From assembly GCA_000004985.1 (NCBI GenBank), contig GG738875.1: a stretch of 64,000 nt of DNA; one strand, written 5' to 3'. Source of the DNA: Naegleria gruberi (lineage: Eukaryota). Positions within the stretch are counted from its first letter, which is position 1. Each line of letters opens with the position of its first letter. The position numbers were made by a program, and so were the translations under genes. Positions 4,894-30,489 of this stretch are shown here, one piece after another. Below the pieces are notes generated by a model. It made no database searches. It was not told the origin of the DNA and saw only the letters and a list, made by a program, of their open reading frames with translations.

Positions 4894-6519
4894 TTACCAC
4901 CTACTTGAGAAGGCAAATATTTCAATCTTGGTGAAATCAAAAGGACGACCACCTTGCAAAGTACAGGTTCCTTTCTTGGAAATTTCTGCAAATGATTTTA
5001 CATAAATAAAGTAGTTTGAATCAGTTTTTGGAGTTGCTTTTTGTTTTTCACATGTGAGAATCAAGTGATTGTTAATTATTTCAGCTCGCTCAGAGTCTTT
5101 TCCAATTGGGTTTTCAAAATAAACAGATTGTTTCTCAGATTCACTCCAAATAATGGCAAGAAAGCCATAACATGTTGATTGCTCATTCACTTCCTTCTTA
5201 AATTCCTCAATAGATGTTTTTGGGTTGATGGTAAGAATCAATTGATTTTGATATCTGAAACGTGTTTGCAATTCAAAATGATATAGTTGATTTGAGTCTA
5301 ATAAGGCACATTTCATATTGTTAATTGATATTTTGATTTCAAGAGGTTTTGTTTTTGAAAACTTGTTGCCTTGGAAATAGTTCAAATTTGGGAAAATGGC
5401 ACCTGACAAGTCACATTGGTTGAAACTGTTCTCCCAATCATCACTGAAACAATATCCAAACATATTACAGGATTCAAATTCACAATTTTCAAATTTAGCA
5501 CCTGATTGCTTCCAAAATTCACAGTCTTTGAATAAGGTATTTACAAATACTTTTCCTTTCAAAGATTCTTGATCGAATGATTTCTTTTCAAATTTTAAAA
5601 TTGGGGTACAGTTTCTAAATGTTGCATTTTCGGGATTGGAATTAGTGAAATCTATATTTTGAAAATCACAATTTTCGAAACATGCATATTTTAAATTGCA
5701 TGAGGTCAGATTTGCTGCAGAAAAGTTTCTACAAGATCTGAATTGTGCACTCTCAAGATTAGAATTACTCAAATTTGCAGAATTAAAATCACATTCTTTG
5801 AAAAGTACTTTTTTCAGACTACAAGAGCTCAAGTTTACCGAACTAAAATTACACGATTCAAATGTTGTGTCATCCATTCGATTTGAATTTAGTTTGGCTG
5901 ATGTGAAATTTGAATATTTGAAAAAAGAATTGTCCATTTTTGAAGAACTCAAATCACAATTCGAAAAATCAGCATTTGATAGTGTTGCTTTGCATAAAGA
6001 GGAATCACTCATTACACAATCTTTGAACGAAATTTTCTGTGCTTGTTCTAGTTTAACTCTATCCAAATTAATTCTCTTCAAATTTCGACCAGTAAAGTCC
6101 AAAATAGGTACATGCATTATCTCATGTTTAACAATCTCCAACACTGCACTGCTGACATCAAGTGTAGTGCTGTTACTTGTTTCAGATTCCAAGATTTTCA
6201 ACAAATTCACACAATTCAACTCTTTGCAAGCATTTATCAATTCTAATTTTTGATATTCTGATAAATCTCTATTTACCATTCCGTACTTTAACCAGTTAAA
6301 GATCATGTTAAATATTTTGTGTGGACAATTAACAAAATACACAGGATCAGTGAATAAATTGGATGGTGTTATTGTAGGTTGAATTTGTTGTTGTGTGAAA
6401 AGTTTAGAAAAGAAGGTGTCTGTTTCTCTTCCACTTTTAATTAATTCATCAGGAATGATGGTGCGGATCGTACCACCAACATTCAAATGAACGGGTTGTG
6501 AGGTAGTGATTGTGGACAT
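4894..6519 (-). CDS. KCTD9-like protein: N-terminal BTB/T1 (K+-channel tetramerisation-type) domain followed by a long pentapeptide-repeat region.
   Basis: The N-terminus (VHLNVGGTIRTIIPDELIKSGRETDTFFSKLF) resembles the KCTD BTB motif. The C-terminal half has tandem 5-residue periodicity typical of pentapeptide repeats, e.g. SNADFSNCDLSSSKM, ANLSNSNLESAQFRSC, FENCDFQNIDFTNSN. Confidence 0.6.
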   Translation of the reverse strand: MSTITTSQPVHLNVGGTIRTIIPDELIKSGRETDTFFSKLFTQQQIQPTITPSNLFTDPVYFVNCPHKIFNMIFNWLKYGMVNRDLSEYQKLELINACKELNCVNLLKILESETSNSTTLDVSSAVLEIVKHEIMHVPILDFTGRNLKRINLDRVKLEQAQKISFKDCVMSDSSLCKATLSNADFSNCDLSSSKMDNSFFKYSNFTSAKLNSNRMDDTTFESCNFSSVNLSSCSLKKVLFKECDFNSANLSNSNLESAQFRSCRNFSAANLTSCNLKYACFENCDFQNIDFTNSNPENATFRNCTPILKFEKKSFDQESLKGKVFVNTLFKDCEFWKQSGAKFENCEFESCNMFGYCFSDDWENSFNQCDLSGAIFPNLNYFQGNKFSKTKPLEIKISINNMKCALLDSNQLYHFELQTRFRYQNQLILTINPKTSIEEFKKEVNEQSTCYGFLAIIWSESEKQSVYFENPIGKDSERAEIINNHLILTCEKQKATPKTDSNYFIYVKSFAEISKKGTCTLQGGRPFDFTKIEIFAFSSRW

Positions 6520-6581: not shown

Positions 6582-7751
6582 TTAAAAACATTTTCTTTGA
6601 ACTATTCCACTCCCAACCTCCTTATATTCATCTTTAGTAATCCACAAAGATTGAAAGCTTGATAATGATGCAAGAATGCTACCTCCAATCCAGACTGTTT
6701 CGCATCCCTTAGTTGGGCCATCCACACGAATTTTCATTGATGAAGGAGCTACCAGTGTTAATTCCTTGTGTATCCTCTCTGACATTCCCTTAAACATGGT
6801 TGTTCCACCTGAAAGAATAACATTCGAATATAAATCCTTTCTAATGTCAATATCACAATTTCGAATAGAATCAAATATTATTTCGTGTACTCCTTTATCT
6901 TCAATTCCAACTAAATTAGGTTGAAACAGTAATTCTGGACATCTGAATAGCTCATTTCCAATAGCGAGAAGTGTTCCATCTGGCCATTCATAATCAACAA
7001 TAGATGAATTGATCTTATATTGCTTCATTTCCTCCTCAAAATCCAAAGCTACATAACAATATCTTTCTTTCATATCTTTTACATATTCTCTTTCAAAACT
7101 GTATTGTAAATTGTATCCTCTTTCTTTCAAGAGGATCATCAAATGGTCAACCAAATCATCTCCTGCCCAATCTAATCTGCAAGTGGCATGCTGCAAAGCA
7201 TGACCTTCAAACACTGGAACCGATTGTGTAATATGATAACCAGAATCCAAAACTATTCCAGTCACGCCACCAGATGCATAGAGCGACAATACAGCTTGAT
7301 TGGCCAAATACATGGCTGGTACCTTATACCCTTCAAACATGATTTGAGTTGTTTTTTCTCTATTTTCCTTTGGATTTTGTTGTTCAGTTAGCATGACTTG
7401 ATGTTCCTCTGGCACAACTCTCAACTCATTGTAAAAGGCATGGTTCCAAACCAGCTCCATATCCTCCCAATTTGTGATCACTCTCTTGTCCACTGGATAA
7501 TGGAGACAAAGTGATTCTCCCCGATGAGAGGTTGCTCTATATCCTACATATGTAGGATTGCTTGAAAGTTTATTCCTTCGTTTGCCTACGATTGAAGGAA
7601 AGCTGTCTGTTGGAGAGTTTTCACCTGCAAAACCAACTTTACACATGCAAGATCCATTATCAATCACGATAGATTTGTTTAGAGACATTTTTTTGTTGGT
7701 TCTAGTGCAAATGATGATTGAACAATGTACTTGAAGAAATAATAGGGACAC
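6582..7751 (-). CDS. Divergent actin / actin-related protein.
   Basis: 389-aa ORF colinear with conventional actin over its full length: IVIDNGSCMCKVGFAGE, NWEDMELVWNHAFYNELRVVPEEH, NREKTTQIMFE, LDSGYHITQSVPVFEG, DIDIRKDLYSNVILSGGTTMF, WIGGSILASLSSFQSLWITKDEY, C-terminal RKCF. Confidence 0.8.
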   Translation of the reverse strand: MSLLFLQVHCSIIICTRTNKKMSLNKSIVIDNGSCMCKVGFAGENSPTDSFPSIVGKRRNKLSSNPTYVGYRATSHRGESLCLHYPVDKRVITNWEDMELVWNHAFYNELRVVPEEHQVMLTEQQNPKENREKTTQIMFEGYKVPAMYLANQAVLSLYASGGVTGIVLDSGYHITQSVPVFEGHALQHATCRLDWAGDDLVDHLMILLKERGYNLQYSFEREYVKDMKERYCYVALDFEEEMKQYKINSSIVDYEWPDGTLLAIGNELFRCPELLFQPNLVGIEDKGVHEIIFDSIRNCDIDIRKDLYSNVILSGGTTMFKGMSERIHKELTLVAPSSMKIRVDGPTKGCETVWIGGSILASLSSFQSLWITKDEYKEVGSGIVQRKCF

Positions 7752-7760
7752 GAAACGAAG

Positions 7761-8702
7761 TTAATGGTTGACTGGGGTAACCTTAAGAAGTTTCTTCAAA
7801 TCTTGGTTTTCAGTGTTGACTAAATTTACAGCCCTGAATCCATTGAGAGTTAATTTGTGTTTGTCAGCTCCATGATCAAGTAAATATTTACAAAGAGAAT
7901 AGTTTTGTTTGCAGGCAGCCAAATGTAGACATGTGTATCCATCAAAATCTGTAGCATTGAGATCCATACCTCTCTTTTCAATGAGATATTCCACAATTTG
8001 TGTGCTACCTCTTGCACAGGCAATGTGAAGGCAATTTTGTCCATAGGTTCTATTTCCAATCATAAAGTGATCATTGTTACACATTGGTGGAAGTAGATTT
8101 TCACACATCCAAATAAATTTTGAATAAGCATTGGAATAGGCAAAGTTCATAAGAAGGGTAGAACGATTGTAATCTTTCACATTGAAAATATTCAGAATGT
8201 CCATCGTTTCACGGTTACGATACAACATTTCATAAAGCTTACACAATTCACAGAACAGAGCTGTGCATTCCTGTTCTGGATCAAAAATTGCTTGTAACAC
8301 AACAGATTTTTCTATATAATGTTTCAAATTATAAACTCGAATCAAAACAAGTGGTCTTTCCAATTCGTATGAAATTATATTCTTCCAAGCAAACGGATTC
8401 TTTATCGTTTTCAATTCTTTCATGATGAAAATATCCACAAATTTCTCTTTAGGATCCAACAATTCTACTCTCATCACACAACTGTTACTTTTTTCATCGA
8501 AAAAACAAGATTCTACTCTTTGGAAATTACGAGAGAAATTATTTAAATACAATAATAGTTGAAAGGAAGGATCTTGATGAATAATTTGATAAAATTCGTG
8601 GCAAACTAAATTAGCAGATCGGAAGAGATTTTCCAGAGGTAAATACTCGAGAATGGAGTGATAAATTTCCCTTGGTAGTAATTGATTTTCTAATGATATC
8701 AT
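7761..8702 (-). CDS. F-box / ankyrin-repeat protein.
   Basis: N-terminal F-box-like LPREIYHSILEYLPLENLFRSANLVCHEFYQI. C-terminal ankyrin-type repeats (NCLHIACARGSTQIVEYLIEKRGMDLNATDFDGYTCLHLAACKQNYSLCKYLLDHGAD). Confidence 0.6.
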   Translation of the reverse strand: MISLENQLLPREIYHSILEYLPLENLFRSANLVCHEFYQIIHQDPSFQLLLYLNNFSRNFQRVESCFFDEKSNSCVMRVELLDPKEKFVDIFIMKELKTIKNPFAWKNIISYELERPLVLIRVYNLKHYIEKSVVLQAIFDPEQECTALFCELCKLYEMLYRNRETMDILNIFNVKDYNRSTLLMNFAYSNAYSKFIWMCENLLPPMCNNDHFMIGNRTYGQNCLHIACARGSTQIVEYLIEKRGMDLNATDFDGYTCLHLAACKQNYSLCKYLLDHGADKHKLTLNGFRAVNLVNTENQDLKKLLKVTPVNH

Positions 8703-8993: not shown

Positions 8994-11900
8994 ATGCCGC
9001 CACTCCTTTCCTTCCATTCTTCTTCCATTATTATCATCCTCATTCTCTTCATCAACAGCATTTTCTTCATTCACTCCTCATTGGCTTCATCTAAAACAAC
9101 AATTATAAAAACAACAGCAAATAATTACAATATTAAAATAGTGGCAGGAAGTTATGGCAATACCATTGATTCCTATCATTTTCCGATCATATCCGAGAGT
9201 CCAATTTATGTGCAATCATCCTCATCATCATCATCTGTGGTGGTGATGGAGAAGGAGGAGGATGATGGTGATGAAATAATATATTTATCAGATACACAGT
9301 TTTGTGTGGTGAGGAAAATTCAGAAAAGTTTGAGTGTTGTGGTGGCAGGAAATGGAATTTGTGCAGTTCCTGGAGAGACAAGTGGATTGGCTGTTGAATT
9401 TTCATTGACATCACCAGGTGGTGTTTATTTGGATGAATCTACTAATATATTATATATTTTGGATAATGGATTGAGTAATTCAGGAGGTTTTGTTAGAACT
9501 GTTGATATGTCAAGTGGAATGTTAAATACTTTGCAATTGACCTATGAACCTGCAGTGCTTATGTTAAAAAGTCCAACAATGATAACAAAGAATGGTGGAA
9601 TATTTTACATTGCTGATACTGGCAATAATGTTATTAGAAGTTTGACATTTACTGGACAAAATACTGCTCATTGTAAAGTAATTATTGGTGCAGTCAACCC
9701 TGACGTATCAATGAGTTGTGTTAATGTTGACCCATTGAGTTGTCAACTTTCTTCTCCAACAAGTATTACATTTTCATCTGATGGAATGATCATTACTGAC
9801 CAGCAAAACAGTAGATTTCTCGCTTTACAAAATGGAATTGTGTATCCATATTCTTTGGTAATACCAACTCCATTGCAAATAATGAGTTTGGGAAATGCTG
9901 AATATATAGTTTCGAATGGAGAAATATTGTATTCCCTCACACAAACCACAAAAAATGGTGCAGATTCAACTATTCTCCTGAAGGATAAAAGTTGGCCAAT
10001 TGGATATTTTGGAATTGATTCAGCACAAACTAATCTTTATTTCATGAGTCAATTGCCAAATTTAGCAGTATCACAAATTGTTAAATTCAACATTCAATCT
10101 CTTGGTCAGCCAACAGTCATTGGTGGTGCATATCCTTATACTTTGAGTCCAAACGTGCCTGCTTCTAGTTACTATTTTAATGGATTAACTCAATTAGAAT
10201 ATGTCAGTGATAGTGAAATTTATTTCGCATCCTATAATACAGATATTATCAAATTTGATATGACAGCAGGATTGGCCACAAGAATTGCTGGTAATATGAA
10301 TCAACCATCAGCGTTATCAAAAATTTCTAAAGGCCTATTAGTTGCAGATACTGTTAATAGGTTAATTAAACTTATTGATGGTGGTGGATCTGTCTCTACT
10401 GTAGCAGGTACAAATTCAAATGGAATAGGTTGTCCTGAAGGAGTTCAGGCTACTAGTTGTGAATTGAATTTACCCAGTGGTGTGGTAGGTACACCCTCAA
10501 TACTATCAAATCAATACATGTTTGTAATTGCTGACAGTAATGCTAATACTCTAAGGATGGTAGCTAATGATTTCACTGTTACAACATTAGCCAACTCTGT
10601 ATCAAATGTGAGATATCCAACGGGTTTATATTACACTGCTAATGGAGATTTATATTTTGCTAATACTGGAACTTCTCAAATAATGAAATTAGCTCATGAT
10701 AATACCATCGCAGTAATTGCAGGAACAGGAGAAAAAGGAAACAAAGGCGATGGTGGATTAGCTGTGAATGCTGCATTGAATTACCCAACACAGGTTACTG
10801 TCACTTCAAATGGAATATTGTATATAGCCGACACTGGCAACAATGCTATCAGAAAAATTGATTCCAATGGTATTATATCTACTGTTACACATAATGCTAT
10901 TCAAGGAATTAATGGTGTTGCCACGACTTCTGAGGGTGAACTACTATACGCTGATAGTTATACTGTAAGAATGATTCAATCGGTAGCATGTATTAATCCA
11001 CAAGGCCAAGTTTGTTCAAATCATGGGAAATGTGTGGATGGGCAATGTCTATGTGAAAGTGGATGGAGAGGTGATTCAGTGTGTGGAACTTTTTCATGTG
11101 ATATTCCAAAACCACCAAATGCACATAATTGTATTGGACCTAACCAGTATTCATGTATGAATGGTTGGTTTGGAGATTTGTGTAATTTACCAATTTGTTT
11201 TGGAATTCAATATAATAATTCAGCTGTTTGTAGCTCACATGGAAAATGTGTATCTAACAACACATGCAATTGTGAAAGTGGATGGAATGGAAATACAAAA
11301 TGTGGGACCTTTTCGTGTGACATTCCAAAACCACCAAACGCCTTTGAATGTATTGGACCTAATCAATATTCATGCATGACTGGTTGGTTTGGAAATTCTT
11401 GTGAACTACCAATTTGTTTTGGAATTCAATTTAATAATTCAGCTGTCTGTAGCTCACATGGACAATGTGTATCTAACAACACATGTATTTGTGAAAGTGG
11501 ATGGAGAGGTGATTCAGTGTGTGGAACTTTTTCATGTGATATTCCAAAACCACCAAACGGTCAGCAGTGTATTGGACCTAACCAGTATTCATGTATGAAT
11601 GGATGGTTTGGAGATTTGTGTAATTTACCAATGTGCTTTGGGATTCAATATAACAGCTCTTCTGTTTGTAGCTCACATGGAAAATGCATATCCAACAATA
11701 CATGCAATTGTGAAAGTGGATGGAATGGAAATAAGCAATGTGGGGCCTTTTCGTGTGACATTCCAAAACCACCAAACGCCTTTGAATGTATTGGACCTAA
11801 TCAATATTCATGTATGGATGGATGGTTTGGAGATTTGTGTACTTTTCCAATTTGTTTTGGAATTCAATTTAATAATTCAGCTGTTTGTAGCTCACATGGA

Positions 11901-13865
11901 AAATGTATTTCCAGTAATACATGCAAGTGTGAAAGTGGATGGAATGGAAATAACCAATGTGGAGCTTTTTCATGTGACATTCCTTCTCAACATGGAATTT
12001 GTATTGGTCCAAACACTTTCAAATGTCAAGATGGATGGACAGGACTCGAATGTGAAATTCCAATTTGTTTTGGAAAATTAGGAAATGATCCTAGAGTGTG
12101 TAACTCACAGGGAAGATGTATTTCTAATAATACATGTCAATGCAATAGTGGATGGAAAGGAAATTCTGAATGTTCTCAATTCTCATGTGATGGAATGGCT
12201 GAATGTTCTCAAAATGGTAAATGTATTTCTAATAATACATGCCAATGCAGATCAGGATGGTCTGGACCAAAATGTGATATTGTTGCATGTGATGGAGTTC
12301 AAAACTGTCATGCTAATGGTTTGTGTATTTCAAACAATACTTGCAAATGTAATAGTGGATGGGAAGGTCAATCATGTTTGGAGTATAATTGCAATGGTAC
12401 CAACAATTGTCAACCGAACGGTCTATGCATTTCGAATAATACTTGTAAATGTAATGATGAATTTGGTGGAAATGATTGTTCAATACCTTACTGTTTTGGA
12501 AAATTGGGTAATAGTGGATGTGAAGATAATGGAATTTGCTCATTTTTCAACAAGTGCTCATGTTTTCCTCTTTACTTTGGAGATCAATGTTCATGGTTAG
12601 ATTGTGATCCAACTTCAAAAGATACATCCCAAAATTCAACTAAAAGATGCTCCTCAAATGGTTATTGTGTTATGACCAGAAATAATTTGAATCAAAATTC
12701 TACCATTTGTGAATGTAATAAGGGATATAATGGTCAATTTTGCCAAAATAGTGATTCTACGAATGGATCGGGAACAATAGCTGCTATAGTTGTTACAATA
12801 CTTGTTATAATTTTGGTATTTATATTAATGATAAGTGTTGGTACTTTTATCTATGTTAAAAAGTTCAGAAACAAATATCAAGATCCAGAGAAAATGAAAA
12901 TGTTAAACAATACTACACCATCAACTTATTCAGAATCAAGTTGGTCAAATTCTCTCTCCATTCAGAATGACACTAGTTTAATAAGTAATACTCACAGTAG
13001 TATTTCATCAAAGACACATTTCAAAATTAGGGATAAAGAATACATAATGGAAAGAAAATTAGGAAGTGGTGCTAATGGTTCTGTATTTGTATTTAAGGAA
13101 ATTAATACCAATCAGCATTTTGCCGTAAAGCAAATAGAAGTAACAAATCCATTTGGTACGGAATTTAAAGAAGTCGTGAATATGTTTGAATTGACTGAGG
13201 ATTCTAATGCTCATATTGTACCAATTATTGGCTGTACAATGGTCGAGAATGGAGGATTCATTTGTATTCTCATGCCACTCTACAAGTGTGATTTGAGAGA
13301 TTGGATATATACAAATCAAAAATCAATCACAATTGATCTAATTATTGAAATTGTAAAACAAATTGCTTTAGGATTACAATATCTCCATTCCAAGAATATG
13401 ATACACAGAGATTTGAAACAAACAAACATATTCATTGCCAAAGCCAATGAAAAAGATGTATCAAAATGTGATGACTTTTTATTGTGCATTGGAGATTGGG
13501 GATCTTCCAGATCTAATTCACGATCTGGTCTGACTGTCTATGAAGGAACAATTCAATTCAGTTCTCCAGAAGCAATCATTAAGGGAGAAGTTGAACAAGC
13601 AAGTGATATTTGGAGTTTGGGATGTGTTTTCTATCAATTATTATCTGGAGATTATGAATCAATTTTGTTTAGGATTAAACAAGGCAATGATCTGGCAGAT
13701 AATGAAGTACTCTTACCAAAAATTCTTAATTTTGGTAAAAAGATGAATTACAGAGATGGAAAGGTTCAATTTTGTTTTGAATTATTGTGTGAAATGATTA
13801 GATATGATGCCAAGATGAGATTAACTGCCCATCAAATTTTAGCCAAGATTGAAAACTTTAAATAA
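8994..13865 (+). CDS. Receptor-like transmembrane kinase: signal peptide, NHL-type beta-propeller repeats, tandem tenascin-type EGF repeats, TM helix, cytoplasmic protein kinase domain.
   Basis: Hydrophobic N-terminus. Repeated YIADTGNNVIR/YIADTGNNAIRKI/YFANTGTSQIMKL NHL-like motifs. About 5 units of ~73 aa with the CxCxxGWxGxxC EGF pattern. TM stretch IAAIVVTILVIILVFILMISVGTFIYV. Kinase motifs GSGANGSV, AVKQ, HRDLKQTN, DWG (variant DFG), SSPE (variant APE). Confidence 0.7.
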   Translation: MPPLLSFHSSSIIIILILFINSIFFIHSSLASSKTTIIKTTANNYNIKIVAGSYGNTIDSYHFPIISESPIYVQSSSSSSSVVVMEKEEDDGDEIIYLSDTQFCVVRKIQKSLSVVVAGNGICAVPGETSGLAVEFSLTSPGGVYLDESTNILYILDNGLSNSGGFVRTVDMSSGMLNTLQLTYEPAVLMLKSPTMITKNGGIFYIADTGNNVIRSLTFTGQNTAHCKVIIGAVNPDVSMSCVNVDPLSCQLSSPTSITFSSDGMIITDQQNSRFLALQNGIVYPYSLVIPTPLQIMSLGNAEYIVSNGEILYSLTQTTKNGADSTILLKDKSWPIGYFGIDSAQTNLYFMSQLPNLAVSQIVKFNIQSLGQPTVIGGAYPYTLSPNVPASSYYFNGLTQLEYVSDSEIYFASYNTDIIKFDMTAGLATRIAGNMNQPSALSKISKGLLVADTVNRLIKLIDGGGSVSTVAGTNSNGIGCPEGVQATSCELNLPSGVVGTPSILSNQYMFVIADSNANTLRMVANDFTVTTLANSVSNVRYPTGLYYTANGDLYFANTGTSQIMKLAHDNTIAVIAGTGEKGNKGDGGLAVNAALNYPTQVTVTSNGILYIADTGNNAIRKIDSNGIISTVTHNAIQGINGVATTSEGELLYADSYTVRMIQSVACINPQGQVCSNHGKCVDGQCLCESGWRGDSVCGTFSCDIPKPPNAHNCIGPNQYSCMNGWFGDLCNLPICFGIQYNNSAVCSSHGKCVSNNTCNCESGWNGNTKCGTFSCDIPKPPNAFECIGPNQYSCMTGWFGNSCELPICFGIQFNNSAVCSSHGQCVSNNTCICESGWRGDSVCGTFSCDIPKPPNGQQCIGPNQYSCMNGWFGDLCNLPMCFGIQYNSSSVCSSHGKCISNNTCNCESGWNGNKQCGAFSCDIPKPPNAFECIGPNQYSCMDGWFGDLCTFPICFGIQFNNSAVCSSHGKCISSNTCKCESGWNGNNQCGAFSCDIPSQHGICIGPNTFKCQDGWTGLECEIPICFGKLGNDPRVCNSQGRCISNNTCQCNSGWKGNSECSQFSCDGMAECSQNGKCISNNTCQCRSGWSGPKCDIVACDGVQNCHANGLCISNNTCKCNSGWEGQSCLEYNCNGTNNCQPNGLCISNNTCKCNDEFGGNDCSIPYCFGKLGNSGCEDNGICSFFNKCSCFPLYFGDQCSWLDCDPTSKDTSQNSTKRCSSNGYCVMTRNNLNQNSTICECNKGYNGQFCQNSDSTNGSGTIAAIVVTILVIILVFILMISVGTFIYVKKFRNKYQDPEKMKMLNNTTPSTYSESSWSNSLSIQNDTSLISNTHSSISSKTHFKIRDKEYIMERKLGSGANGSVFVFKEINTNQHFAVKQIEVTNPFGTEFKEVVNMFELTEDSNAHIVPIIGCTMVENGGFICILMPLYKCDLRDWIYTNQKSITIDLIIEIVKQIALGLQYLHSKNMIHRDLKQTNIFIAKANEKDVSKCDDFLLCIGDWGSSRSNSRSGLTVYEGTIQFSSPEAIIKGEVEQASDIWSLGCVFYQLLSGDYESILFRIKQGNDLADNEVLLPKILNFGKKMNYRDGKVQFCFELLCEMIRYDAKMRLTAHQILAKIENFK
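10990..12060 (+). repeat. Tandem 219-bp coding repeats (EGF-like units) with a two-unit, ~438-bp higher-order periodicity.
   Basis: ccaatttgttttggaattcaat... recurs at about 11191, 11409, 11629, 11847 and 12059. Alternate units share GWRGDSVCGTFSC versus GWNGN.QCG.FSC variants. Confidence 0.8.
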
Positions 13866-14090: not shown

Positions 14091-15170
14091 TTAATATTGT
14101 TTCTGGAGTCCATATTTGAAATCTTTAGTCTCAGTGGTGGTTCGGTATCGAATAATCATTTCAACGAGTAGTTCAGCAATACCCACACCATCCCTTGCAC
14201 TAGTGTGTACAATTGAGCAATTTAGGATCATGTTCTTTCTGAGAACTCGTTTCACATATAATTCCCTAGTTTTTTCATCGTGTTCTCCATATGTAATATC
14301 ACACTTTGTGAAAACAATGATTATTGGACTATTATTGACCTCTCTAATACGAACAATTCTCTGTAGCAATTTATCCAAAAAATTGTAACTGTGCTCTATT
14401 GATTTTTGATTATCCTTCGAATAATTACTCCAATAAGGTTGTGGTGGTATTGTTAGTAAAATTATATCACTAATCTGTATCATCCGATCCTGTAAGGACA
14501 CATACTCATCCATTGCATATGTATCCACAATTTCCAATTGATATTTAGCATCCGAATATCGAAACTCTTTCAAATAAGTATCCTCAATTTGCATCTCATA
14601 TGGAGAATTGAAAAATTCACCAGACAGTACTCGACATAGACTTGATTTTCCAGAACCATACTCTCCAATACAAAATATCTTACATTTCAAATCCTCAACA
14701 TTCATTTGAGAATTTTGATTAATATTACCAACACTATTCGATTCATTTTTCTTCATTATTGGAATCAATTGTTCCTCATACTGAATCTGCAACATTCTCA
14801 CTAACATGCAATAGTATCGTTTGGCTTTTTTCTTGATTTTTTCTCTAAGTTTCTTCTCTTCCTGCAGTAGAGAATGGCCAAGAAATTCCCTCTCCATCAA
14901 ACTCAACCAAAATTCATTGAAATAATTAGAAATTTCCAAAGATTCGGATAAAAAGAAGGAACAAGTGGATTGGAGTGAAAGGATGCTCTTTTTTACTTCA
15001 TCAATTTGTAGATTAATGAAATTATTTGATGAAGTGTTGGCAGTTTGATGATGAACAGGTAACAGAAAGGAAAATATTTCACGGAAAATGTCATGTGGTA
15101 AAGATAATAGTGTGAATTTTGACATTTTTTTTAAGTTGTTAATTACAAGTTGGAACTTGGTTTGGAACAA
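14091..15170 (-). CDS. F-box protein with a C-terminal Ras-superfamily small GTPase domain.
   Basis: N-terminal F-box-like FTLLSLPHDIFREIFSFLLP. GTPase motifs G1 GEYGSGKSS, G3 DTYAMDE (no catalytic Gln), G4 TKCD, G5 TSAR. Confidence 0.55.
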   Translation of the reverse strand: MFQTKFQLVINNLKKMSKFTLLSLPHDIFREIFSFLLPVHHQTANTSSNNFINLQIDEVKKSILSLQSTCSFFLSESLEISNYFNEFWLSLMEREFLGHSLLQEEKKLREKIKKKAKRYYCMLVRMLQIQYEEQLIPIMKKNESNSVGNINQNSQMNVEDLKCKIFCIGEYGSGKSSLCRVLSGEFFNSPYEMQIEDTYLKEFRYSDAKYQLEIVDTYAMDEYVSLQDRMIQISDIILLTIPPQPYWSNYSKDNQKSIEHSYNFLDKLLQRIVRIREVNNSPIIIVFTKCDITYGEHDEKTRELYVKRVLRKNMILNCSIVHTSARDGVGIAELLVEMIIRYRTTTETKDFKYGLQKQY

Positions 15171-18010: not shown

Positions 18011-21000
18011 TTATTGGGCTTTTCTTGGTTCAATAACGAGAGACTTCTTGTGAAGTTCATCATCATTGGTGATAATTCCTTCAAAGATTTGTTCTTTAAG
18101 AACATATTGAAGGTAAGGAATAGGTTCTAAACGATACAAGTTGGAACAACTTTGTAAATCCTTTACAGTTTGAATAGTATTATAGTAAATTCTTCTCTTT
18201 TGATAATTAATGAGTTTCTTGTTTGGATTCTTAGGGTGATTAAATTCATCAGGATTACCATCAGAAGTGAAGGTCAAATCAGTTTGGAAGATACCAATAA
18301 ATGGAACGATTGGAGTATTATTGTTAACAATGGTATTCTTCAAATTTTCTCTCAATTTGATACGATTGTTAGCATGTAAGTCATCAAAGATCTTAAAGAT
18401 GTTGGCATCGTCTTGTGAGAGAACTTTTCTTGTTTCTTTCAATCTATAAACAGGAACAGATTGCAAACCTGAAATAATGGCAAAGAAGGCACTATAGTTA
18501 TTCAATTCATAAGTTTCCTTAGCAATTTCAACAAACTTCTTAAACAATGCCTTTCTAATTTCGGTATTTGACTCTGTCAAGATTGTAGTTTGAACCCAGT
18601 AACTGATATTGTTTACACGGTCAGTCAATGAAGAAATGTGAGGAGCCAATTCATACTTGTACTTGATATCACTCCATGCAGAGTTATAGAATTCGTTTGC
18701 TTCAATCTTCTTAAAGATCTTCAAATCAATAATAGTTTCTTGTCTAGCAATTTCAGTAGCTGGCCAACTCAACAAGTTGAATTGAATATTGTAAGGATTA
18801 GGCATGCCTTCATTAATGTATTTGGACTTTTGAATCTTCCATTGGTTAAGAGAGATTTCTGGTTCTTTCAACTTTTCAATTGGAACACCTTTAGGAATCA
18901 TGACAGTGTTAGATTGGCCATGATGACTGGTTGAACCGGATTCATCCTTCTTGAAACTAAGCAAGTTTTGAACAAGAGTCTTTCTAATCTTCTTCAAAGT
19001 TGGGTGAACCCTCTTTGCACCATCCTCTTGTTGTTTCTTTCTGATTGGTTGGGCAATTTCTTCAAAATAGTGCGCATAAAGAGCAACAGCTTCATTGTCA
19101 AGAGCATGGAAAGCTTCCTTGAGGAGTTCATTCATTGCTTGTTCAATGTAGAGACGAACAGTGTTATTCTTGATAACAGATCTGTAGACTCCCATAAGAC
19201 GATTCATCAGAGAACGTGCTGTGGTGAATGATGAGAAGGTATTGAGGAAGGTAGAATGGAAAACACCTCTCAATTCAGTTTCACCTTCCAATGTTAGCAT
19301 TCCTACGAATTTTTCCACCAACTTCTTCAATGTACCAGATGAAATTGTACTACGCTTAATATCAACATTGACATCTTCTGGTTCATCTTCCAAATCAACT
19401 TCACTCTCAAAGTTAAGAACATAAGAAAATGGTTCCAAGAGCAAAGCCATACATTCCTTTGAGATTTGAATAGACTCACCAATAGCCTTATCACCCATCA
19501 GTTCTTCAGTGTACAAACTACAAGCTCCCAAAAGCCATCTCCACTTTTGTTCAACCTTACGTTTTTGGGCGTAAGGAACTCTGTCCTTCTTTGGAATTGT
19601 TAGGTCATATAAATCTGGACAGACAAGACTGTGGTTAAAGCTAGTAAGGAATGGATGCAAACAATCTTGGAATATGAGAGACACAACCTTGAATTCATCC
19701 TTCATAGTCAATTGGAAAATCATGTTAAATATCAATCTTGAAATTGAACGCAAAAGCAAGGATTTGACTGGAGTCATTGTCTTGGTATTTCTGGTGATTT
19801 CTAGTTTTGAAATGACTTGGACATATTCTTCCTTGTTAGCCAAGAGCTTATCTATTGGATATTTAACATTGATATTTTCAAAGATTTGATTGAGAACATT
19901 CTTCTCAGTGATCTTGCTGAGGATATAATTAACAGACAAAACTGTTTCGATACGAATATTTCTTTGTCCTCCCTTCTTCCTTTCTTTTGGAATGGATGAA
20001 GAATAATCGAGGTGATGTACAGACATGACTACATAGTCTAAGAATGAAATACAATTGATCATCACGTGTAGAGGAGCTTGAGTCCACCATTGGATGAGTC
20101 TTTGTTCTGAGAGGTTTCTCAAAACCCAAAGAAGACAGAAAGAGGTCAAGATGTAAAGTTCATCATTGTGGAACATTGTAAGGTATTCTTCCTTATCCAT
20201 ATATCTGTCAACAAAATACAAGAAAATTTCTGCAATAGCGGCTCTCTTGGATGTATCTTGATATCTTGAATCAAAGTCAATCTTGCAGAATAAATCTAAC
20301 AAGTATTTGCCAACTTTGAGCATGAGCTTTTCATTATTAGTTTCAATGGTGGCAAAGAAAACATCAAATAAGTGTCTAACCATAAAGTTTCCTTCTTGCA
20401 ATTGCAAACTGTTGAGTGGAATGAAATAGTCATAGTCGCACAAAATGGCAACAAACTCTGACTTTAATCTCAAAAGTGCTTCAGTACTAGCATCTCCTGA
20501 AAGACAATCCATATAGTGCTTGACAATATCAATATAGTATTCTCTATCAATGAATGGAATTAAATCTCTAATAAACAATGCCAAGTTTCTGTTACTATTC
20601 AAACCAATATTTTGTCTACCTGAACCACTAGAAGACAATAATTTCTTTGTACGAGAACAGAAGTGATGCATTAATTGTTTGACCTTTCTCACAAAGTATT
20701 CTTGAGAAAGTGGATGTTCATCATTCCACCCATATCCATCGTTAGACTTATTCAAATACCAACTGTCCTTGATGGTGAGACAATCCAAAGAATCAGTCTT
20801 GATACACAATGTCAAACTCTTAATAATAACATCAAAGATAAACCAAGAGAAACGGAACGGATCGTGTTCAGTCAAATTGTTAGTAACAAAGTAGTGTTTG
20901 GTTGGTTCTTGCAAAATCTTTGTCAATTCTTCCAAATAGTCAGTAAAGACACGAGTTAAAACTGAATAAATTGGATAACCTCTATTCATTTCGTCAAAGA

Positions 21001-24000
21001 TATACTTGGTATATGAAGCCATAAACTTGTTACCTCTGGTATGATTCTTAGTAAGATGGTAAACACCTCTCAAACAGACCAATACTTGTTCGAAGATTAA
21101 TCTTTCAGCACCCTTTCTCAAATCAGTAGAGTGAATAGATAAATCAGAAATGTTACTCATGAGTTCAAACAAAATATTCATAACAATTGGTAAGTGAGGC
21201 ATAAATAAGGAAAAGTCAATATCACAGAACTTCATCAAAATGGATCTGCAAATGTATTCCAAAATCTTTTCCTTATTCTCAGTCTCAGGGCTATACAAAT
21301 CGTGAATACTGGCAAAGAAGAGTTTCAAAATATCATCACGTGGATTGATTGTTGAAACAAGTTGTGCCATAAGCTTGAATCTGGCATCACTTATTTTTTC
21401 AAGAGTGCCCTTAGTTTGACTCTTAGTAAGGTAATCTGGTTGGAGTTCCTTGTATACTCTGAGTTCTCCAGTAAAGAATTGCTTTTGGAAATCAGTATGT
21501 TTGAGTTGATAGATTGCTTGTGCCTTGTCAGCTTCATAAATCTTGTTCTTTTCAGTCAAATCCAAGAATGAATAACCTAGGATTGCTCTATCACTGTTAC
21601 CAAAATCATCCTTTCTATCCAAGAATTCATACTTTAGCTTATTAGACTTTTTATCAATATCAATATGATAGAAAGTGAAAAGCAAGTGATTACCCTTGTT
21701 TGAAACAGCTGGAATATCAAGCTTAATTTCATCAAGGAATTGTGGAGTCTTATTATCATACTCAAGAGCAGAGAATTCACTATGCTTCTTTTCAGAAGTA
21801 AATCTGTTAATAATGACTGGATTAGATTTTTGAAGCTCTTCCAATGTTGGAATAGTGCTATCTGATTCTCTGAAAATTACCTCAATGAGAATGTTCTTAC
21901 CATTAGCCTTTTCCAATTTGACACCTTGTGGATAGACATACAAAGTATTTTGTAAGTTCATGTATGGATATCTGATTTTGTACCATGGAATTTCATTAAC
22001 TGAAATAGACTCTAAAATCTTCATTTGCTCTTCAAAGAGGGCTTTTCCGAAATCACCAGAATTTAGGATGACTGAATTACGACGTTCGGCCTCACTTTCT
22101 TCATCTTCTTCTTCCATAACATTGGCAACATCAGTACTATCATCTCCCAAATAATTGTTTGGTGTTTGGTAAGATGAGTGGTCTTCATTGATACTTCCAC
22201 TGTCTTCAGAATCTTGCTTGTATATGAGTTGACTATCACCAATACCAGCTCCAGTATCTTCTGATGGTTTTGATAACTTGTACTTTTGAAGATCACTGAT
22301 CAACTCAACGTAAACCTTCATTGTAGCGTTAACAGAATGGTGTTTAGTCTTTTGCTTAAGTGCAGAGTAAACATTGAGTGGATTTTTGTAATCACCTTCA
22401 ACAAAGAACATTTGTTCAAAGTTCAAAATACTAGATGTCAACTCTATCTTCTTCTCATTGATTTTAAATAAAGGTACAAATCCAAAGAATGCTGGATACC
22501 TAAAGAAAGCCAACTTGTCCTTCTTTTCTAAAAATTCGGAACTAAATTCCTTCTTCTTGTGTGCCTTGATTGTATCCTTGGTTGGGCCATTGGATACACG
22601 GTTAACAAACAATACCAAAAACATTTCTTCATTTGGTGAAGAAACTGAGAATAATCTCTTCTCAGTTCTAGCAACACCTCTCTTTTGAAGAGAATTATGG
22701 AGGGATTCTGGAAGTTTCATCAATTGTTCATCAGTGAACATGTGGAAGTGATAATCTTCGCTGACCTTCTTTAAATATTTGGCATCATAGATGGCAACAG
22801 AGAATGTGAATAGATCATTTTGGAGTTCAGTACTATCCATAAAAATAAAATCGCTGCATGATAATTGGAATCTGAACTTTTTCTTGACAGGATATTCAAT
22901 TTCAGGGAATCTTTGACACATAGTAGTATGGAGTGGTTTGTATTCATATCTTGGTTGTAAAACTCCCATCAATCTCTTAGTATCCTTTTGAACATTTTTA
23001 CGATTCAATTCGGCAATATCGTTCAATTTCTTTTGAGGATCAACACTCAAACTGTCAGTCTTTTGCAGTTCTGCAGTGAGTTCATTCAAAAGTTCAAGAG
23101 GACGCTTAGCACACAATTCCTTAGCCTTTTCAACCAAACTCTTTTTCAAAGATTTGGAAATATCGATTTCATCAAAAGCATCAACAGCCTTCTTTTCACC
23201 AGTCTTCTTTTGAAGATTGGCAATTTCCTTCTCTGAAAGGTTTTGTTGATTAGTTACAAGAGAGGTGAAGCTCATTTGTCTTGGGAAGTTTGGATCGTTT
23301 GGATCGATGGTTGGAACCTCCTTCTTAGTTTCAGATCCTTCCTTTCCTTCCTTATCGTCCTTCTTAGTACTAGATTCGGTATTTTGTGCAGTAGTCTTGA
23401 AGATATTATTCCAAATTGATTTTCTCTTGTCTCTGTTTGTTGCTGCAGGGGAACCGGCTGAACTTGATTTACCACTACCAGAAGCAGCAATAGAATCACG
23501 ATTACTACTTCTAGACAAGGCATTCTTTAACTTTTTGGACAAGCCACTTTCTGTAAAGTCACCCATTTGTTCAGTAGCACGGAAAAGCTCCTCTGGATCT
23601 TTAGAAGTTTGTACTTCAGTAGCCTTTTCAGCTTGGGCTTTTTCAATGTCTAAAATCTTGGACATGGAAGGTAAGATATCGTCATCATTTGTATCTTGAT
23701 TCTCCTCTTCCTCTGATTTCTTTTGTTCCTTCTTATTCTTCTTAGCTGATTTATCCTCATGTTCAGTTGATTGTGTTGCTGTTGTTACCGTAGTACTGTT
23801 AGTAGGAGCCTCAGAATTAAGAATTGCATATTGTGGTTTGAAAGGAGACATTCTGTATGGATTTGCTTCATAATGCAAAATCTTGAATGGTTTATAGAAA
23901 ACTTGCAAACAGTGTCTCACATGAGGGAATTTGAAATAAACAACTTCCTCCAAATTAGTATCTGCATCACTTGATTTCTTTGTAACTTTTTGTAAATATC

Positions 24001-25522
24001 CACCTCCGTAAGAAAGGAATCTGAAAAAGTTTTTAACAAGTAATCCCTTATGTTCTGAATTTTCTTTGCTTGGTGATGTTTTTGTACCATTACTACTGGA
24101 TTCATTGGTGGAATTGCCTGTAGCAGGAGAGAGTGCATTTTGTTCAGAAGGTGATCCAAGAGTATTCAATGATGTATTAACACTACCACCTCCGCTACTA
24201 ATGAGCATACTATTAGAATGTTGTTGAATTCTCATACTTGATGATCTCATCAAAATTCTTCTAGATGTCTGATTACGAAGAGATCCAGTATTGAACAATA
24301 CCATCCACTGTGTTTGATCAATTTCCTCAATTGAAAATGGATCCATAGCTTGCATATTCACTGGTAAAGGTGATTTTTGCTCGCTGCTCTTTCCATTAGT
24401 GTCATCAGAGAGAGTTGAAGCAATCATTTTCATTAGCTTTTGTTGACGTCTCTTTTCCTCTTCTGTCATTGGTGGAGGAGGAGTGGCAGGTGGAGGAGGA
24501 AGAGGTCCATTATATGAAGTAATAGTGAGTTTTCCACTTGTAGTTGTAGTAACAGTGTTATTATTATTGGTGGAAGATGTAGAACTGCTAGCAGAACTGG
24601 TAGTGTCATGCTCAACACTTGTTTGACTAGTTGATGATGATGTCACTTCAGTGTGTTGTTGTACAGGTTCTTCTTCTTCGTTTAGACGTGGAGTTGGTTG
24701 TTCAACACTGATGGCAACATCAGCAACAAATGAAGTTGAATTACTGGTAGTAGTATTATCATTAGTGATACTAACAGCTACCTCTTGTTGTTCAATTACA
24801 ACAGCATCACTGTTGGAGTCTGCCCTAGAAACCAATGTTTCTTCTTGTGTAATATTAGTGGAAACTGGTTCATCAAGTACTACTTCTTGTTGGACAACAT
24901 CAGTGGACGATGTTTGTGATGAGTCAATAATGACCTGGCCAACAGGTGTTTCTTCTACAATAATTGTATTCTGTTCTTCGACAATAGTCTCGCTTTGTAC
25001 CTTTGATACTTCTTGTTGTTGATGATCATCGTGGTCAACATTCGTTATTTCTGCTGTACTTGTAGTTGAAGAATTCAAATTGTTGGAAACTGGTTCATCA
25101 TAATGATGATTTACTTCTTCTATTGTTGTTGTAATTGCTTCTTGTGGTTGTTCTACAGAATTGTTGCTGCTGTCATCACTTGCCTCCTTATGATGAGTAG
25201 AAGAAGATTTAGAAGGACTACCTTCAACTTTTGTATCCACAATAGTAGCAGTAGAATTATTATTATCATTGGAATTGTTGGTAGTAGTGGTACTATCATC
25301 ATGACTAGTTGGAGGTGTTATTGTTTGTGGTTGTGATGTATTATCTAGTTGTTTTTCTTCATCATCAGAAAGACTACTTCTTCTTGATGAATTAGTTGAA
25401 GAGGAAGAAGATGAAGTGGATCCTTCTTGATGTTCATCTTCTTGATTGCTGACAGCAGGTTGATGATGGGTTATTGATGAGTGATTTACTTCATCAACAT
25501 TAGATGATTCATGATGGTCCAT
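18011..25522 (-). CDS. Giant (2503-aa) Ras guanine-nucleotide exchange factor: low-complexity S/T/N-rich N-terminus, DOCK DHR-1-like segment, long helical/ARM-like middle, C-terminal CDC25-homology RasGEF domain.
   Basis: The C-terminus has CDC25 signature blocks NYSAFFAIISGLQSVPVYRL and VPFIGIFQTDLTFTSDGNPDEF. The middle segment NTLYVYPQGVKLEKANGKNILIEVIFRESD resembles the DOCK DHR-1 core (..DLYLTLERGEF.KG.K...NVEV..). Confidence 0.7.
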   Translation of the reverse strand: MDHHESSNVDEVNHSSITHHQPAVSNQEDEHQEGSTSSSSSSTNSSRRSSLSDDEEKQLDNTSQPQTITPPTSHDDSTTTTNNSNDNNNSTATIVDTKVEGSPSKSSSTHHKEASDDSSNNSVEQPQEAITTTIEEVNHHYDEPVSNNLNSSTTSTAEITNVDHDDHQQQEVSKVQSETIVEEQNTIIVEETPVGQVIIDSSQTSSTDVVQQEVVLDEPVSTNITQEETLVSRADSNSDAVVIEQQEVAVSITNDNTTTSNSTSFVADVAISVEQPTPRLNEEEEPVQQHTEVTSSSTSQTSVEHDTTSSASSSTSSTNNNNTVTTTTSGKLTITSYNGPLPPPPATPPPPMTEEEKRRQQKLMKMIASTLSDDTNGKSSEQKSPLPVNMQAMDPFSIEEIDQTQWMVLFNTGSLRNQTSRRILMRSSSMRIQQHSNSMLISSGGGSVNTSLNTLGSPSEQNALSPATGNSTNESSSNGTKTSPSKENSEHKGLLVKNFFRFLSYGGGYLQKVTKKSSDADTNLEEVVYFKFPHVRHCLQVFYKPFKILHYEANPYRMSPFKPQYAILNSEAPTNSTTVTTATQSTEHEDKSAKKNKKEQKKSEEEENQDTNDDDILPSMSKILDIEKAQAEKATEVQTSKDPEELFRATEQMGDFTESGLSKKLKNALSRSSNRDSIAASGSGKSSSAGSPAATNRDKRKSIWNNIFKTTAQNTESSTKKDDKEGKEGSETKKEVPTIDPNDPNFPRQMSFTSLVTNQQNLSEKEIANLQKKTGEKKAVDAFDEIDISKSLKKSLVEKAKELCAKRPLELLNELTAELQKTDSLSVDPQKKLNDIAELNRKNVQKDTKRLMGVLQPRYEYKPLHTTMCQRFPEIEYPVKKKFRFQLSCSDFIFMDSTELQNDLFTFSVAIYDAKYLKKVSEDYHFHMFTDEQLMKLPESLHNSLQKRGVARTEKRLFSVSSPNEEMFLVLFVNRVSNGPTKDTIKAHKKKEFSSEFLEKKDKLAFFRYPAFFGFVPLFKINEKKIELTSSILNFEQMFFVEGDYKNPLNVYSALKQKTKHHSVNATMKVYVELISDLQKYKLSKPSEDTGAGIGDSQLIYKQDSEDSGSINEDHSSYQTPNNYLGDDSTDVANVMEEEDEESEAERRNSVILNSGDFGKALFEEQMKILESISVNEIPWYKIRYPYMNLQNTLYVYPQGVKLEKANGKNILIEVIFRESDSTIPTLEELQKSNPVIINRFTSEKKHSEFSALEYDNKTPQFLDEIKLDIPAVSNKGNHLLFTFYHIDIDKKSNKLKYEFLDRKDDFGNSDRAILGYSFLDLTEKNKIYEADKAQAIYQLKHTDFQKQFFTGELRVYKELQPDYLTKSQTKGTLEKISDARFKLMAQLVSTINPRDDILKLFFASIHDLYSPETENKEKILEYICRSILMKFCDIDFSLFMPHLPIVMNILFELMSNISDLSIHSTDLRKGAERLIFEQVLVCLRGVYHLTKNHTRGNKFMASYTKYIFDEMNRGYPIYSVLTRVFTDYLEELTKILQEPTKHYFVTNNLTEHDPFRFSWFIFDVIIKSLTLCIKTDSLDCLTIKDSWYLNKSNDGYGWNDEHPLSQEYFVRKVKQLMHHFCSRTKKLLSSSGSGRQNIGLNSNRNLALFIRDLIPFIDREYYIDIVKHYMDCLSGDASTEALLRLKSEFVAILCDYDYFIPLNSLQLQEGNFMVRHLFDVFFATIETNNEKLMLKVGKYLLDLFCKIDFDSRYQDTSKRAAIAEIFLYFVDRYMDKEEYLTMFHNDELYILTSFCLLWVLRNLSEQRLIQWWTQAPLHVMINCISFLDYVVMSVHHLDYSSSIPKERKKGGQRNIRIETVLSVNYILSKITEKNVLNQIFENINVKYPIDKLLANKEEYVQVISKLEITRNTKTMTPVKSLLLRSISRLIFNMIFQLTMKDEFKVVSLIFQDCLHPFLTSFNHSLVCPDLYDLTIPKKDRVPYAQKRKVEQKWRWLLGACSLYTEELMGDKAIGESIQISKECMALLLEPFSYVLNFESEVDLEDEPEDVNVDIKRSTISSGTLKKLVEKFVGMLTLEGETELRGVFHSTFLNTFSSFTTARSLMNRLMGVYRSVIKNNTVRLYIEQAMNELLKEAFHALDNEAVALYAHYFEEIAQPIRKKQQEDGAKRVHPTLKKIRKTLVQNLLSFKKDESGSTSHHGQSNTVMIPKGVPIEKLKEPEISLNQWKIQKSKYINEGMPNPYNIQFNLLSWPATEIARQETIIDLKIFKKIEANEFYNSAWSDIKYKYELAPHISSLTDRVNNISYWVQTTILTESNTEIRKALFKKFVEIAKETYELNNYSAFFAIISGLQSVPVYRLKETRKVLSQDDANIFKIFDDLHANNRIKLRENLKNTIVNNNTPIVPFIGIFQTDLTFTSDGNPDEFNHPKNPNKKLINYQKRRIYYNTIQTVKDLQSCSNLYRLEPIPYLQYVLKEQIFEGIITNDDELHKKSLVIEPRKAQ

Positions 25523-30372: not shown

Positions 30373-30442
30373 AAAATCATTTGCATTAGCCGGGAGTCGA
30401 ACCCGGGTCACCAGCTTGGAAGGCTGGTATGATACCGTTACA
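30373..30442 (-). tRNA. tRNA-Gly (anticodon UCC).
   Basis: Reverse complement GCATTAGTAGTGTAACGGTATCATACCAGCCTTCCAAGCTGGTGACCCGGGTTCGACTCCCGGCTAATGC folds as a cloverleaf: 7-bp acceptor stem, anticodon loop CTTCCAA, T-arm GGGTTCGACTCCC. Confidence 0.8.
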
Positions 30443-30489
30443 CTACTAATGCTCTTGAAATATTTTTTAAATTAAGGAAATTCAGGAAT

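Follow-up and report, generated by a model that had tools for sequence, protein, structure and literature searches.

We have analysed a gene at positions 8994 to 13,865 (plus strand) of a 64,000-nucleotide stretch of Naegleria gruberi contig GG738875.1, the whole of which is called the window below, and propose that its product, D2VJ61, is a type I single-pass receptor-like Ser/Thr kinase of the N. gruberi lineage; we put the probability of this reading at about 0.7. The parts of the protein follow one another in the order signal-like N-terminus, about twelve NHL-type beta-propeller blades, EGF modules, one transmembrane helix and kinase domain. Pfam matches, hydropathy and motif positions thereby bear out the succession of parts proposed earlier from the letters and their open reading frames (ORFs), without database searches (the sequence-only reading). 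The gene is real, already public and machine-annotated. In an exact-sequence look-up, the translation of the ORF is identical residue for residue to XP_002675885.1 / EFC43141.1 / UniProt D2VJ61 of N. gruberi NEG-M, annotated as 'serine/threonine kinase' on a 396-kb scaffold. Since the match runs from the first to the last residue, the public gene model is the same single intronless ORF of 1623 codons that had been picked out from the letters, and the window belongs to the nuclear DNA of N. gruberi. The window is AT-rich (about 30-37% GC) and dense with long ORFs, and the gene itself, flanked by intergenic gaps of 291 bp (divergent) and 225 bp (convergent), sits in DNA of 32-36% GC, a base composition at which a 4.9-kb open frame cannot have a chance origin. 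No paper on the family of D2VJ61 or on its architecture was found in the searchable open-access literature, which does not cover the N. gruberi genome paper.

The kinase domain is clearly recognised by Pfam (Pkinase, PF00069; 144.8 bits against a cut-off of 31.7, E 4.3e-42, profile positions 2-259 of 263). Its motifs comprise the glycine-rich loop GSGANGSV (amino acids 1357-1364), AVKQ with K1379, the alphaC Glu in FKEVV, the catalytic loop HRDLKQTN (1471-1478, with N1478), SSPE (1523-1526, with SPE at 1524-1526), D1538 in SDIWSLG and R1609, and all catalytic positions map to those of PKA (G-loop, K72, E91, D166, K168, N171, D184, T197, E208, D220 and R280), the activation-loop residue T1514 standing at the position of PKA T197. 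The sole change in a catalytic motif is the replacement of the Phe of DFG by Trp, while its Asp (D1501) and Gly (G1503) are kept. The sequence-only reading had pointed to this substitution, and the alignments confirm that it falls in the DFG column: HMMER places LLCIGDWGSSR opposite LLKIIDFGLSK of CDPK2, and in a MAFFT alignment, with PKA and CK2alpha sequences that were entered by hand, D1501-W1502-G1503 lines up with D184-F-G of PKA and D175-W-G of CK2alpha. An AlphaFold2 (AF2) model of amino acids 1339-1623 is canonically two-lobed, with a predicted local distance difference test score (pLDDT) of 83.3 and a predicted template-modelling score (pTM) of 0.87, and is uncertain only at the activation loop. 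Foldseek matches it to EGFR, FGFR2, JAK1 and CDPK structures with TM-scores of 0.65-0.72. As to specificity, HRDLKxxN together with GT/SxxY/FxAPE is typical of Ser/Thr kinases, and HRDLAARN/RAAN together with PxxWxAPE of Tyr kinases. With its HRDLKQTN catalytic loop and GTIQFSSPE P+1 loop, the kinase is by these signatures of the Ser/Thr-specific type and not a Tyr kinase.

The altered motif raises the question of activity, and the sequence-only reading had considered atypical catalysis or a pseudokinase. A receptor in which the change from Phe to Trp abolishes or strongly alters catalysis, and which would signal as a scaffold like HER3 or the plant pseudokinase receptor-like kinases (RLKs), could account for the DWG, for the divergence of the domain (at most about 33-36% identity to any kinase outside the DWG family described below) and for the insert preceding the motif. 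We nevertheless regard it as improbable. In most pseudokinases one or more of the Lys, the HRD Asp and the DFG Asp are missing, whereas in D2VJ61 the Asp and Gly of the motif, K1379, the alphaC Glu, HRD, N1478, SPE, D1538 and R1609 are all kept. GDWGSSR is invariant in the five out of five family sequences that cover the site, at 48-66% identity, and sister NHL-EGF kinases carry DYG, so that the position keeps its aromatic character there too. DWG also appears sporadically in otherwise canonical kinases (P0275, P0190, P0197 and P0215); among the kinases retrieved we counted 105 DFG, 13 DLG, 11 DYG and 11 DWG (six of the latter being the family or D2VJ61 itself), numbers that are skewed by the choice of query and upset by the insert ahead of the motif, and that serve only to show this sporadic occurrence. 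Finally, CK2alpha carries DWG naturally and is constitutively active, its Trp adding a hydrogen bond that disfavours the DFG-out state (PMC9608649). By analogy, a stabilised active conformation would be the more probable consequence of the Trp in D2VJ61. Because the catalytic residues are intact, the Trp is invariant in the family and CK2alpha is active with the same motif, a pseudokinase is unlikely and the D2VJ61 kinase is probably catalytically active. The likeness to CK2alpha ends with the DWG that the two have in one alignment column. CK2, which is soluble and belongs to the CMGC group, is outside the best 60 PDB kinase matches of D2VJ61 and reads IDWGLAE where D2VJ61 has GDWGSSR; membership in the CK2 family was rejected, the motif alone being held in common.

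Only two segments of the protein are strongly hydrophobic (Kyte-Doolittle, 19-residue window, value above 1.8), namely amino acids 1 to about 30 and 1262-1288. Cysteines and NxS/T sequons are concentrated between them in the EGF region (86 Cys and 15 sequons in amino acids 665-1275), compared with 7 Cys and no sequon in the propeller region; four more sequons occur next to the transmembrane helix, in the juxtamembrane linker and in the kinase. The signal-like N-terminus, a transmembrane helix followed by KKFRNK in agreement with the positive-inside rule, and this distribution of Cys and sequons indicate a type I topology, in which the propellers and EGF modules would lie outside and the kinase inside the cell.

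The sequence-only reading had raised the question of a six-bladed propeller between amino acids 60 and 660, to be checked by structure prediction. The number of blades, about twelve, rules this out, and amino acids ~46-662 are instead predicted to form two tandem six-bladed propellers. This rests on colinear alignments with 12-blade proteins, on the grouping of strands in an AF2 model and on tandem-propeller matches in Foldseek. Bacterial arrays of 12 NHL blades, mostly from Acidobacteria-like metagenome bins, align colinearly with amino acids 65-664 (for example P0066, 28% identity, E 7e-35), as does the N. gruberi NHL-EGF kinase P0417 with amino acids 45-641. The ectodomain model (amino acids 30-665, built from a 21-sequence alignment) is all-beta with a mean pLDDT of 77.9, and its ~50 strands fall into ~12 groups of four. 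In propeller 1, ~25 strands grouped by four have pLDDT values mostly of 70-94, the exceptions being the last, weakly modelled blade and an N-terminal acidic and Ser-rich loop (amino acids ~52-92) modelled with low confidence; in propeller 2 the values are mostly above 90 (most of amino acids ~430-650). Tandem-propeller fragments of LRP6 are the top Foldseek matches in the PDB (E 5.7e-18), followed lower down by LRP2/4, the bacterial teneurin-like protein 9ifo, NHLRC2 and two-propeller bacterial sensors, with TM-scores that are low throughout, at about 0.3.

The nature of the blades is best seen in propeller 2, the last three blades of which bear clear NHL signatures (VIADSNANTLRMV, YFANTGTSQIMKL and YIADTGNNAIRKI). 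The Pfam NHL family (PF01436) matches amino acids 595-621 with 48.7 bits against a cut-off of 20, which places D2VJ61 in this family, and TEN_NHL matches amino acids 520-633; both NHL and Pkinase thus score above their cut-offs in the domain scan that the sequence-only reading had called for. Sequence matches of propeller 2 in the PDB are headed by a teneurin-like protein (3.9e-48), with plant SOQ1 and teneurin-2/-3/-4 at ~1e-16 to 1e-13, the designed, PknD-derived Pizza propellers at ~1e-13, and further NHLRC2, TRIM2/3/71 and the PknD sensor (1rwi, 1.8e-6). In propeller 1 the NHL signature is weak, and this propeller is a degenerate copy of the kind found in propeller 2.

The stalk between the propellers and the membrane opens with the repeats that had first been noticed as about five near-identical 73-residue EGF-like units. 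There are five of them in register, each of exactly 73 residues with 10 Cys, approximately one 6-Cys EGF module plus a 4-Cys module. That they are of teneurin or tenascin type, as proposed, is upheld by Pfam EGF_TEN (amino acids 673-921, 151.9 bits against a cut-off of 65, E 2.9e-44), by EGF_Teneurin (121 bits over 10 stretches) and, over 9-11 stretches, by EGF_Teneurin, EGF_2 and PEAR1L-type EGF matches; teneurin-2/3 EGF matches cover amino acids 1030-1200 in the modules that follow. Tandem Repeats Finder (TRF) describes the DNA at 11045-11983 either as 4.3 copies of a 219-nt period with 82% matches or as 2.1 copies of a 438-nt period with 89%. Since the longer period fits better, the array has grown by duplication of a two-unit block.

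An exhaustive HMMER search with the kinase region against 1.84 billion cluster representatives returned only four close sequences: P0002 (66% identity) and the fragments P0242 (65%), P0341 (55%) and P0259 (49%). No other sequence exceeded about 33-36% identity, most of the high-ranking ones owing their place to multiple kinase domains. Cluster look-up identified P0002 as N. gruberi D2VYK3 (1395 amino acids); P0242 shares a cluster, at 90% or more, with D2VXW9 of N. gruberi (P0390, 1349 amino acids), P0341 is the N. gruberi fragment D2V1Y3, and P0259 stems from a sequencing-run assembly. D2VYK3 and D2VXW9 are full length, carry DWG and are colinear with D2VJ61 in their arrangement of two propellers, EGF region, transmembrane helix and kinase. 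We treat these three proteins as an ad hoc family of DWG-type NHL-EGF receptor kinases, defined for this analysis, within which the kinases are 55-67% identical. Throughout the family the Lys and Asn of the catalytic loop are invariant; the loop is HRDLKLGN in the D2V1Y3 fragment and HRDLKQ[TS]N elsewhere. Compared with D2VYK3 and D2VXW9, respectively, D2VJ61 is 54% and 31% identical in propeller 1, 57% and 40% in propeller 2, about 70% and about 62% in the EGF region, 45% and 22% in the juxtamembrane linker, and 67% and 55% in the kinase. The kinase is thus, together with the EGF region, the best conserved part, and because its identity exceeds that of propeller 1 with both paralogs, the comparison indicates that it has probably been kept by purifying selection.

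The stalk differs within the family in length. Both full-length paralogs have two 73-residue units, and D2VJ61 exceeds them by exactly 219 residues (3 x 73) at the unit array and by 69 residues further on. With five units in one protein and two in the others, stalk length is evolving fast within the DWG family, and the expansion of the unit is recent. Units that are 82-89% identical in DNA lie in the range where an assembly can err in copy number, and we have therefore considered that the array was inflated by misassembly, or that two neighbouring genes, one for a secreted NHL-EGF protein and one for a kinase, have been read as one. Such an artefact seems to us most implausible. The units differ by 11-18%, which is enough for unique assembly, the transmembrane helix and juxtamembrane linker join both halves in frame, the length of the open frame is beyond chance as stated above, and the same fusion is found in two paralogs on other scaffolds and on the independent metagenome contigs L001 and L002.

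A further search with a 984-residue query spanning the EGF region, transmembrane helix and kinase revealed a second subfamily with about 12 NHL blades, EGF modules, a transmembrane helix and a kinase with DYG. It consists of N. gruberi P0417 and P0433, which are nearly identical copies on one 461,873-bp scaffold, and the environmental P0400, a single gene call at 707-4561 of contig L001 with the same layout. N. gruberi thus has at least five NHL-EGF-transmembrane-kinase genes in two kinase subfamilies. The DYG-type kinases match the DWG type with ~66 bits, no better than unrelated kinases, and our assumption of a single ancestral NHL-EGF-kinase fusion for both was dropped on account of this distance; independent fusion and an old split are both possible. 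The same search brought up EGF-transmembrane-kinase proteins with a canonical DFG: P0404 from N. gruberi, P0445, and the metagenome proteins P0407 and P0457. In the latter two an RCC1-repeat propeller takes the position of the NHL blades, before the same teneurin-type EGF stalk, transmembrane helix and canonical-DFG kinase. The sequences of these proteins suggest that propellers may have been swapped on a common EGF-transmembrane-kinase chassis in unidentified protists.

NHL-EGF-transmembrane proteins lacking a kinase are numerous in the genus and include P0018, P0415 and P0421 of N. lovaniensis, P0410 of N. fowleri, and P0419 and P0462 of N. gruberi; no kinase-bearing match from N. fowleri or N. 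lovaniensis was obtained with the 984-residue query within the sensitivity of that search. These proteins lend some weight to the idea that D2VJ61 is mainly an adhesion or recognition molecule, attaching to prey, substrate or other amoebae, and that its kinase is a secondary add-on with little signalling role. The variation in EGF unit number between paralogs, typical of surface adhesins, fits such a molecule, and so does the finding that the PknD sensor by itself mediates adhesion to laminin and invasion (PMC3322341). A merely decorative role is disfavoured by the kinase being among the best conserved parts of the family with all its catalytic residues kept, and we consider this alternative as a whole unlikely. 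It also overlaps with the receptor kinase we propose, as adhesion and signalling are not mutually exclusive.

Concerning the distribution of the family, P0242 and P0400 both come from the ENA metagenome ERZ929261, which evidently contains a Naegleria-like organism. A scan of JGI metagenomes with the family kinase alignment gave generic kinases only, at 34% identity or less, and no further family members. As far as these sequence searches show, the DWG receptor kinases appear to be restricted to N. gruberi and very close relatives.

Among known systems, PknD of Mycobacterium tuberculosis (PDB 1RWI/1RWL) comes nearest to D2VJ61 in architecture and in function: its extracellular sensor is a six-bladed NHL propeller, joined by a single transmembrane helix to a Ser/Thr kinase; propeller 2 of D2VJ61 resembles its sensor in sequence. 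PknD is a bacterial protein with an N-terminal kinase and a single C-terminal propeller. D2VJ61, in contrast, has the reverse, type I order, two propellers, about 16 EGF-type modules where PknD has none, and a DWG kinase, and there is no specific kinship of the kinases, PknD being outside the best 60 PDB kinase matches of D2VJ61. The proposed logic of PknD, in which extracellular binding is passed on to an intracellular kinase, could nevertheless apply to both; the PknD sensor is a laminin binder and is sufficient for the invasion of host cells (PMC3322341). The pairing of an NHL sensor with a Ser/Thr kinase in PknD, together with the at least five genes in N. gruberi, makes 'unusual', the word applied to the combination of NHL, EGF and kinase in the sequence-only reading, an overstatement.

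The same reading had compared the ectodomain with teneurins, and at the level of domains the likeness stands: NHL propeller and teneurin-type EGF modules are common to both, and the best PDB sequence matches of D2VJ61 are the teneurin-like proteins 9ifo/9pt5 and teneurin-2/-3. It does not extend to orientation, domain order or the YD shell. In teneurins, which have type II orientation, eight EGF repeats precede the NHL domain, a YD-repeat shell and finally an RHS/toxin-like C-terminus come after it, and a kinase is absent (PMC3278476). D2VJ61 is predicted to be of type I, has its NHL blades before the EGF modules and bears a kinase, and no YD or RHS family is among its Pfam matches at E<=1; membership in the teneurins was therefore rejected. 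The best structural matches of the ectodomain model, LRP5/6 and the LDLR family, share tandem six-bladed propellers with EGF modules, but their propellers are of YWTD and not NHL type, and the matches are at 13-15% identity with a TM-score of about 0.33. In LRP5/6 the propellers alternate with the EGF modules, and a kinase is absent.

Plant wall-associated kinases (WAKs) combine EGF-like repeats, a transmembrane helix and a Ser/Thr kinase of the RLK/Pelle group, and the Entamoeba transmembrane kinases (TMKs) a Cys-rich ectodomain and a kinase. Both resemble D2VJ61 in being type I single-pass proteins with a Cys-rich ectodomain, a cytoplasmic Ser/Thr kinase and lineage expansion. Neither is known to have NHL propellers, and their kinases belong to other groups; our kinase searches gave no specific sequence kinship of the D2VJ61 kinase to WAKs or TMKs.

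We can sketch how such a receptor might work. The propellers would form the ligand- or surface-binding part, by analogy with PknD, teneurins and LDLR-family proteins, and the EGF stalk could act as a rigid spacer that projects them from the membrane. Binding of a ligand would cluster or dimerise the receptor and allow the kinase domains to trans-phosphorylate, likely at T1514, whereupon the activated kinase would phosphorylate Ser/Thr substrates in the cytoplasm. If the Trp of DWG stabilises the active 'DFG-in' state as in CK2alpha, control might be exerted by proximity or phosphorylation rather than by a DFG flip. In a soil amoeba that feeds on bacteria, prey, substrate or cell-cell contact would be the likely input, a guess from its lifestyle.

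Several points weigh against reading D2VJ61 as a receptor kinase. The reading is built from sequences, profile matches and predicted structures; hydropathy was the sole guide to the signal peptide and its cleavage, the mutual placement of the two propellers in the model is uncertain (pTM 0.56), and the blades were counted on secondary-structure strings and not on coordinates. The kinase fits no recognisable group: its best PDB matches (CDPK, ERK5, ULK2, PLK1, RAF and NEK1, all at 57-66 bits) are spread over CAMK, CMGC, TKL and TK at similar scores, and for this reason substrates and partners cannot be inferred. A variable insert of 10-20 residues lies directly before the DWG, and the analogy with CK2 covers one residue.

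A more far-reaching scenario can be put forward only tentatively, and we think it doubtful as a whole. Heterolobosea may independently have joined an animal-looking ectodomain of tandem NHL propellers and teneurin-type EGF repeats to an orphan Ser/Thr kinase, held by its DWG in the active conformation as CK2 is. This would give a receptor confined to N. gruberi, switched purely by clustering, with which other amoebae or bacterial prey are recognised; the array of 12 NHL blades would have been acquired laterally from bacteria, and its stalk would be evolving fast by duplication of the 73-residue unit.

Eukaryotes have evolved receptor kinases several times, among them the receptor Tyr and receptor Ser/Thr kinases of animals, the RLKs of plants and the TMKs of Entamoeba, and the D2VJ61 family would add a heterolobosean case. 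It is a new form within the known receptor-like Ser/Thr kinases and not a major surprise. Since the gene is already in the public annotation, its value is descriptive and comparative, and it opens no long-standing question. The use of teneurin building blocks in another order bears on module shuffling before and outside animals, the DWG family offers a second natural DWG context outside CK2 in which the role of the Trp can be tested, and researchers working on N. gruberi gain candidate surface sensors. The features of the gene are listed in Table 1.

Table 1. Features of the D2VJ61 gene and protein (window positions in nucleotides; protein positions in amino acids, aa)
Feature	Protein (aa)	Window	Strand	Basis
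Complete intronless gene, 1623 codons + stop		8994..13865	+	ORF listing, exact-sequence look-up
Signal-peptide-like hydrophobic N-terminus, ...FFIHSSLA	1-31	8994..9086	+	Kyte-Doolittle hydropathy
Predicted propeller 1, six degenerate NHL-type blades including YIADTGNNVIRSL	~46-378	9129..10127	+	AF2 model, colinear alignment
Predicted propeller 2, six NHL blades	~398-662	10185..10979	+	Pfam, PDB sequence matches, AF2 model
Five tandem 73-aa Cys-rich units	661-1025	10974..12068	+	TRF, in-register listing, Pfam EGF_TEN
About six further EGF-like CxC...G...C modules	1026-1253	12069..12752	+	Motif count, Cys/sequon counts, teneurin matches
Single transmembrane helix, IAAIVVTILVIILVFILMISVGTFIYV, then KKFRNK	1262-1288	12777..12857	+	Hydropathy and sequence
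Ser/Thr/Asn-rich juxtamembrane linker, poorly conserved	1289-1345	12858..13028	+	45% and 22% identity to paralogs
Protein kinase domain, Ser/Thr type	1351-1617	13044..13844	+	Pfam, motif map, AF2
DWG replacing DFG	1501-1503	13494..13502	+	Alignments to CDPK2, PKA, CK2alpha

The neighbourhood of the gene contains several other ORFs of note. Divergent to the D2VJ61 gene over the 291-bp gap lies an ORF for an F-box-like and ankyrin protein (7761-8702, minus strand), which is separated by 9 bp from an actin-family ORF on the same strand (6582-7751; Pfam Actin 2.9e-116). A Ras/Roc-type small GTPase (14091-15170, minus strand) has its GTPase domain at amino acids 164-339, after a 160-residue N-terminal extension that opens with an F-box-like LLSLPHDIFREIFSFL, recognised by eye. 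As listed, this ORF begins with TTG and is absent from the protein collection, and the annotated start of the gene probably differs. At 18011-25522 (minus strand), an ORF of 2503 residues joins a DOCK-type C2 domain (amino acids 1188-1397, 3.8e-28) to RasGEF_N and RasGEF (2257-2444, 4e-49), an unusual combination of a module of the Rho guanine nucleotide exchange factor (GEF) family with a Ras-GEF catalytic domain. Another ORF, of 685 residues (56678-58735, minus strand), contains a PhoPQ-activated pathogenicity-related domain (PF10142, 4e-94) and an ice-binding-like domain (1.2e-10); it is bacterial-looking and a candidate for lateral transfer into N. gruberi. A 541-residue pentapeptide-repeat protein (Pentapeptide_4, 1.5e-24), of a family commoner in bacteria than in eukaryotes, is encoded at 4894-6519 (minus strand). 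Genes for tRNA-Gly(UCC) (30382-30452) and tRNA-Val(UAC) (35150-35223), both on the minus strand, lie between protein-coding genes.

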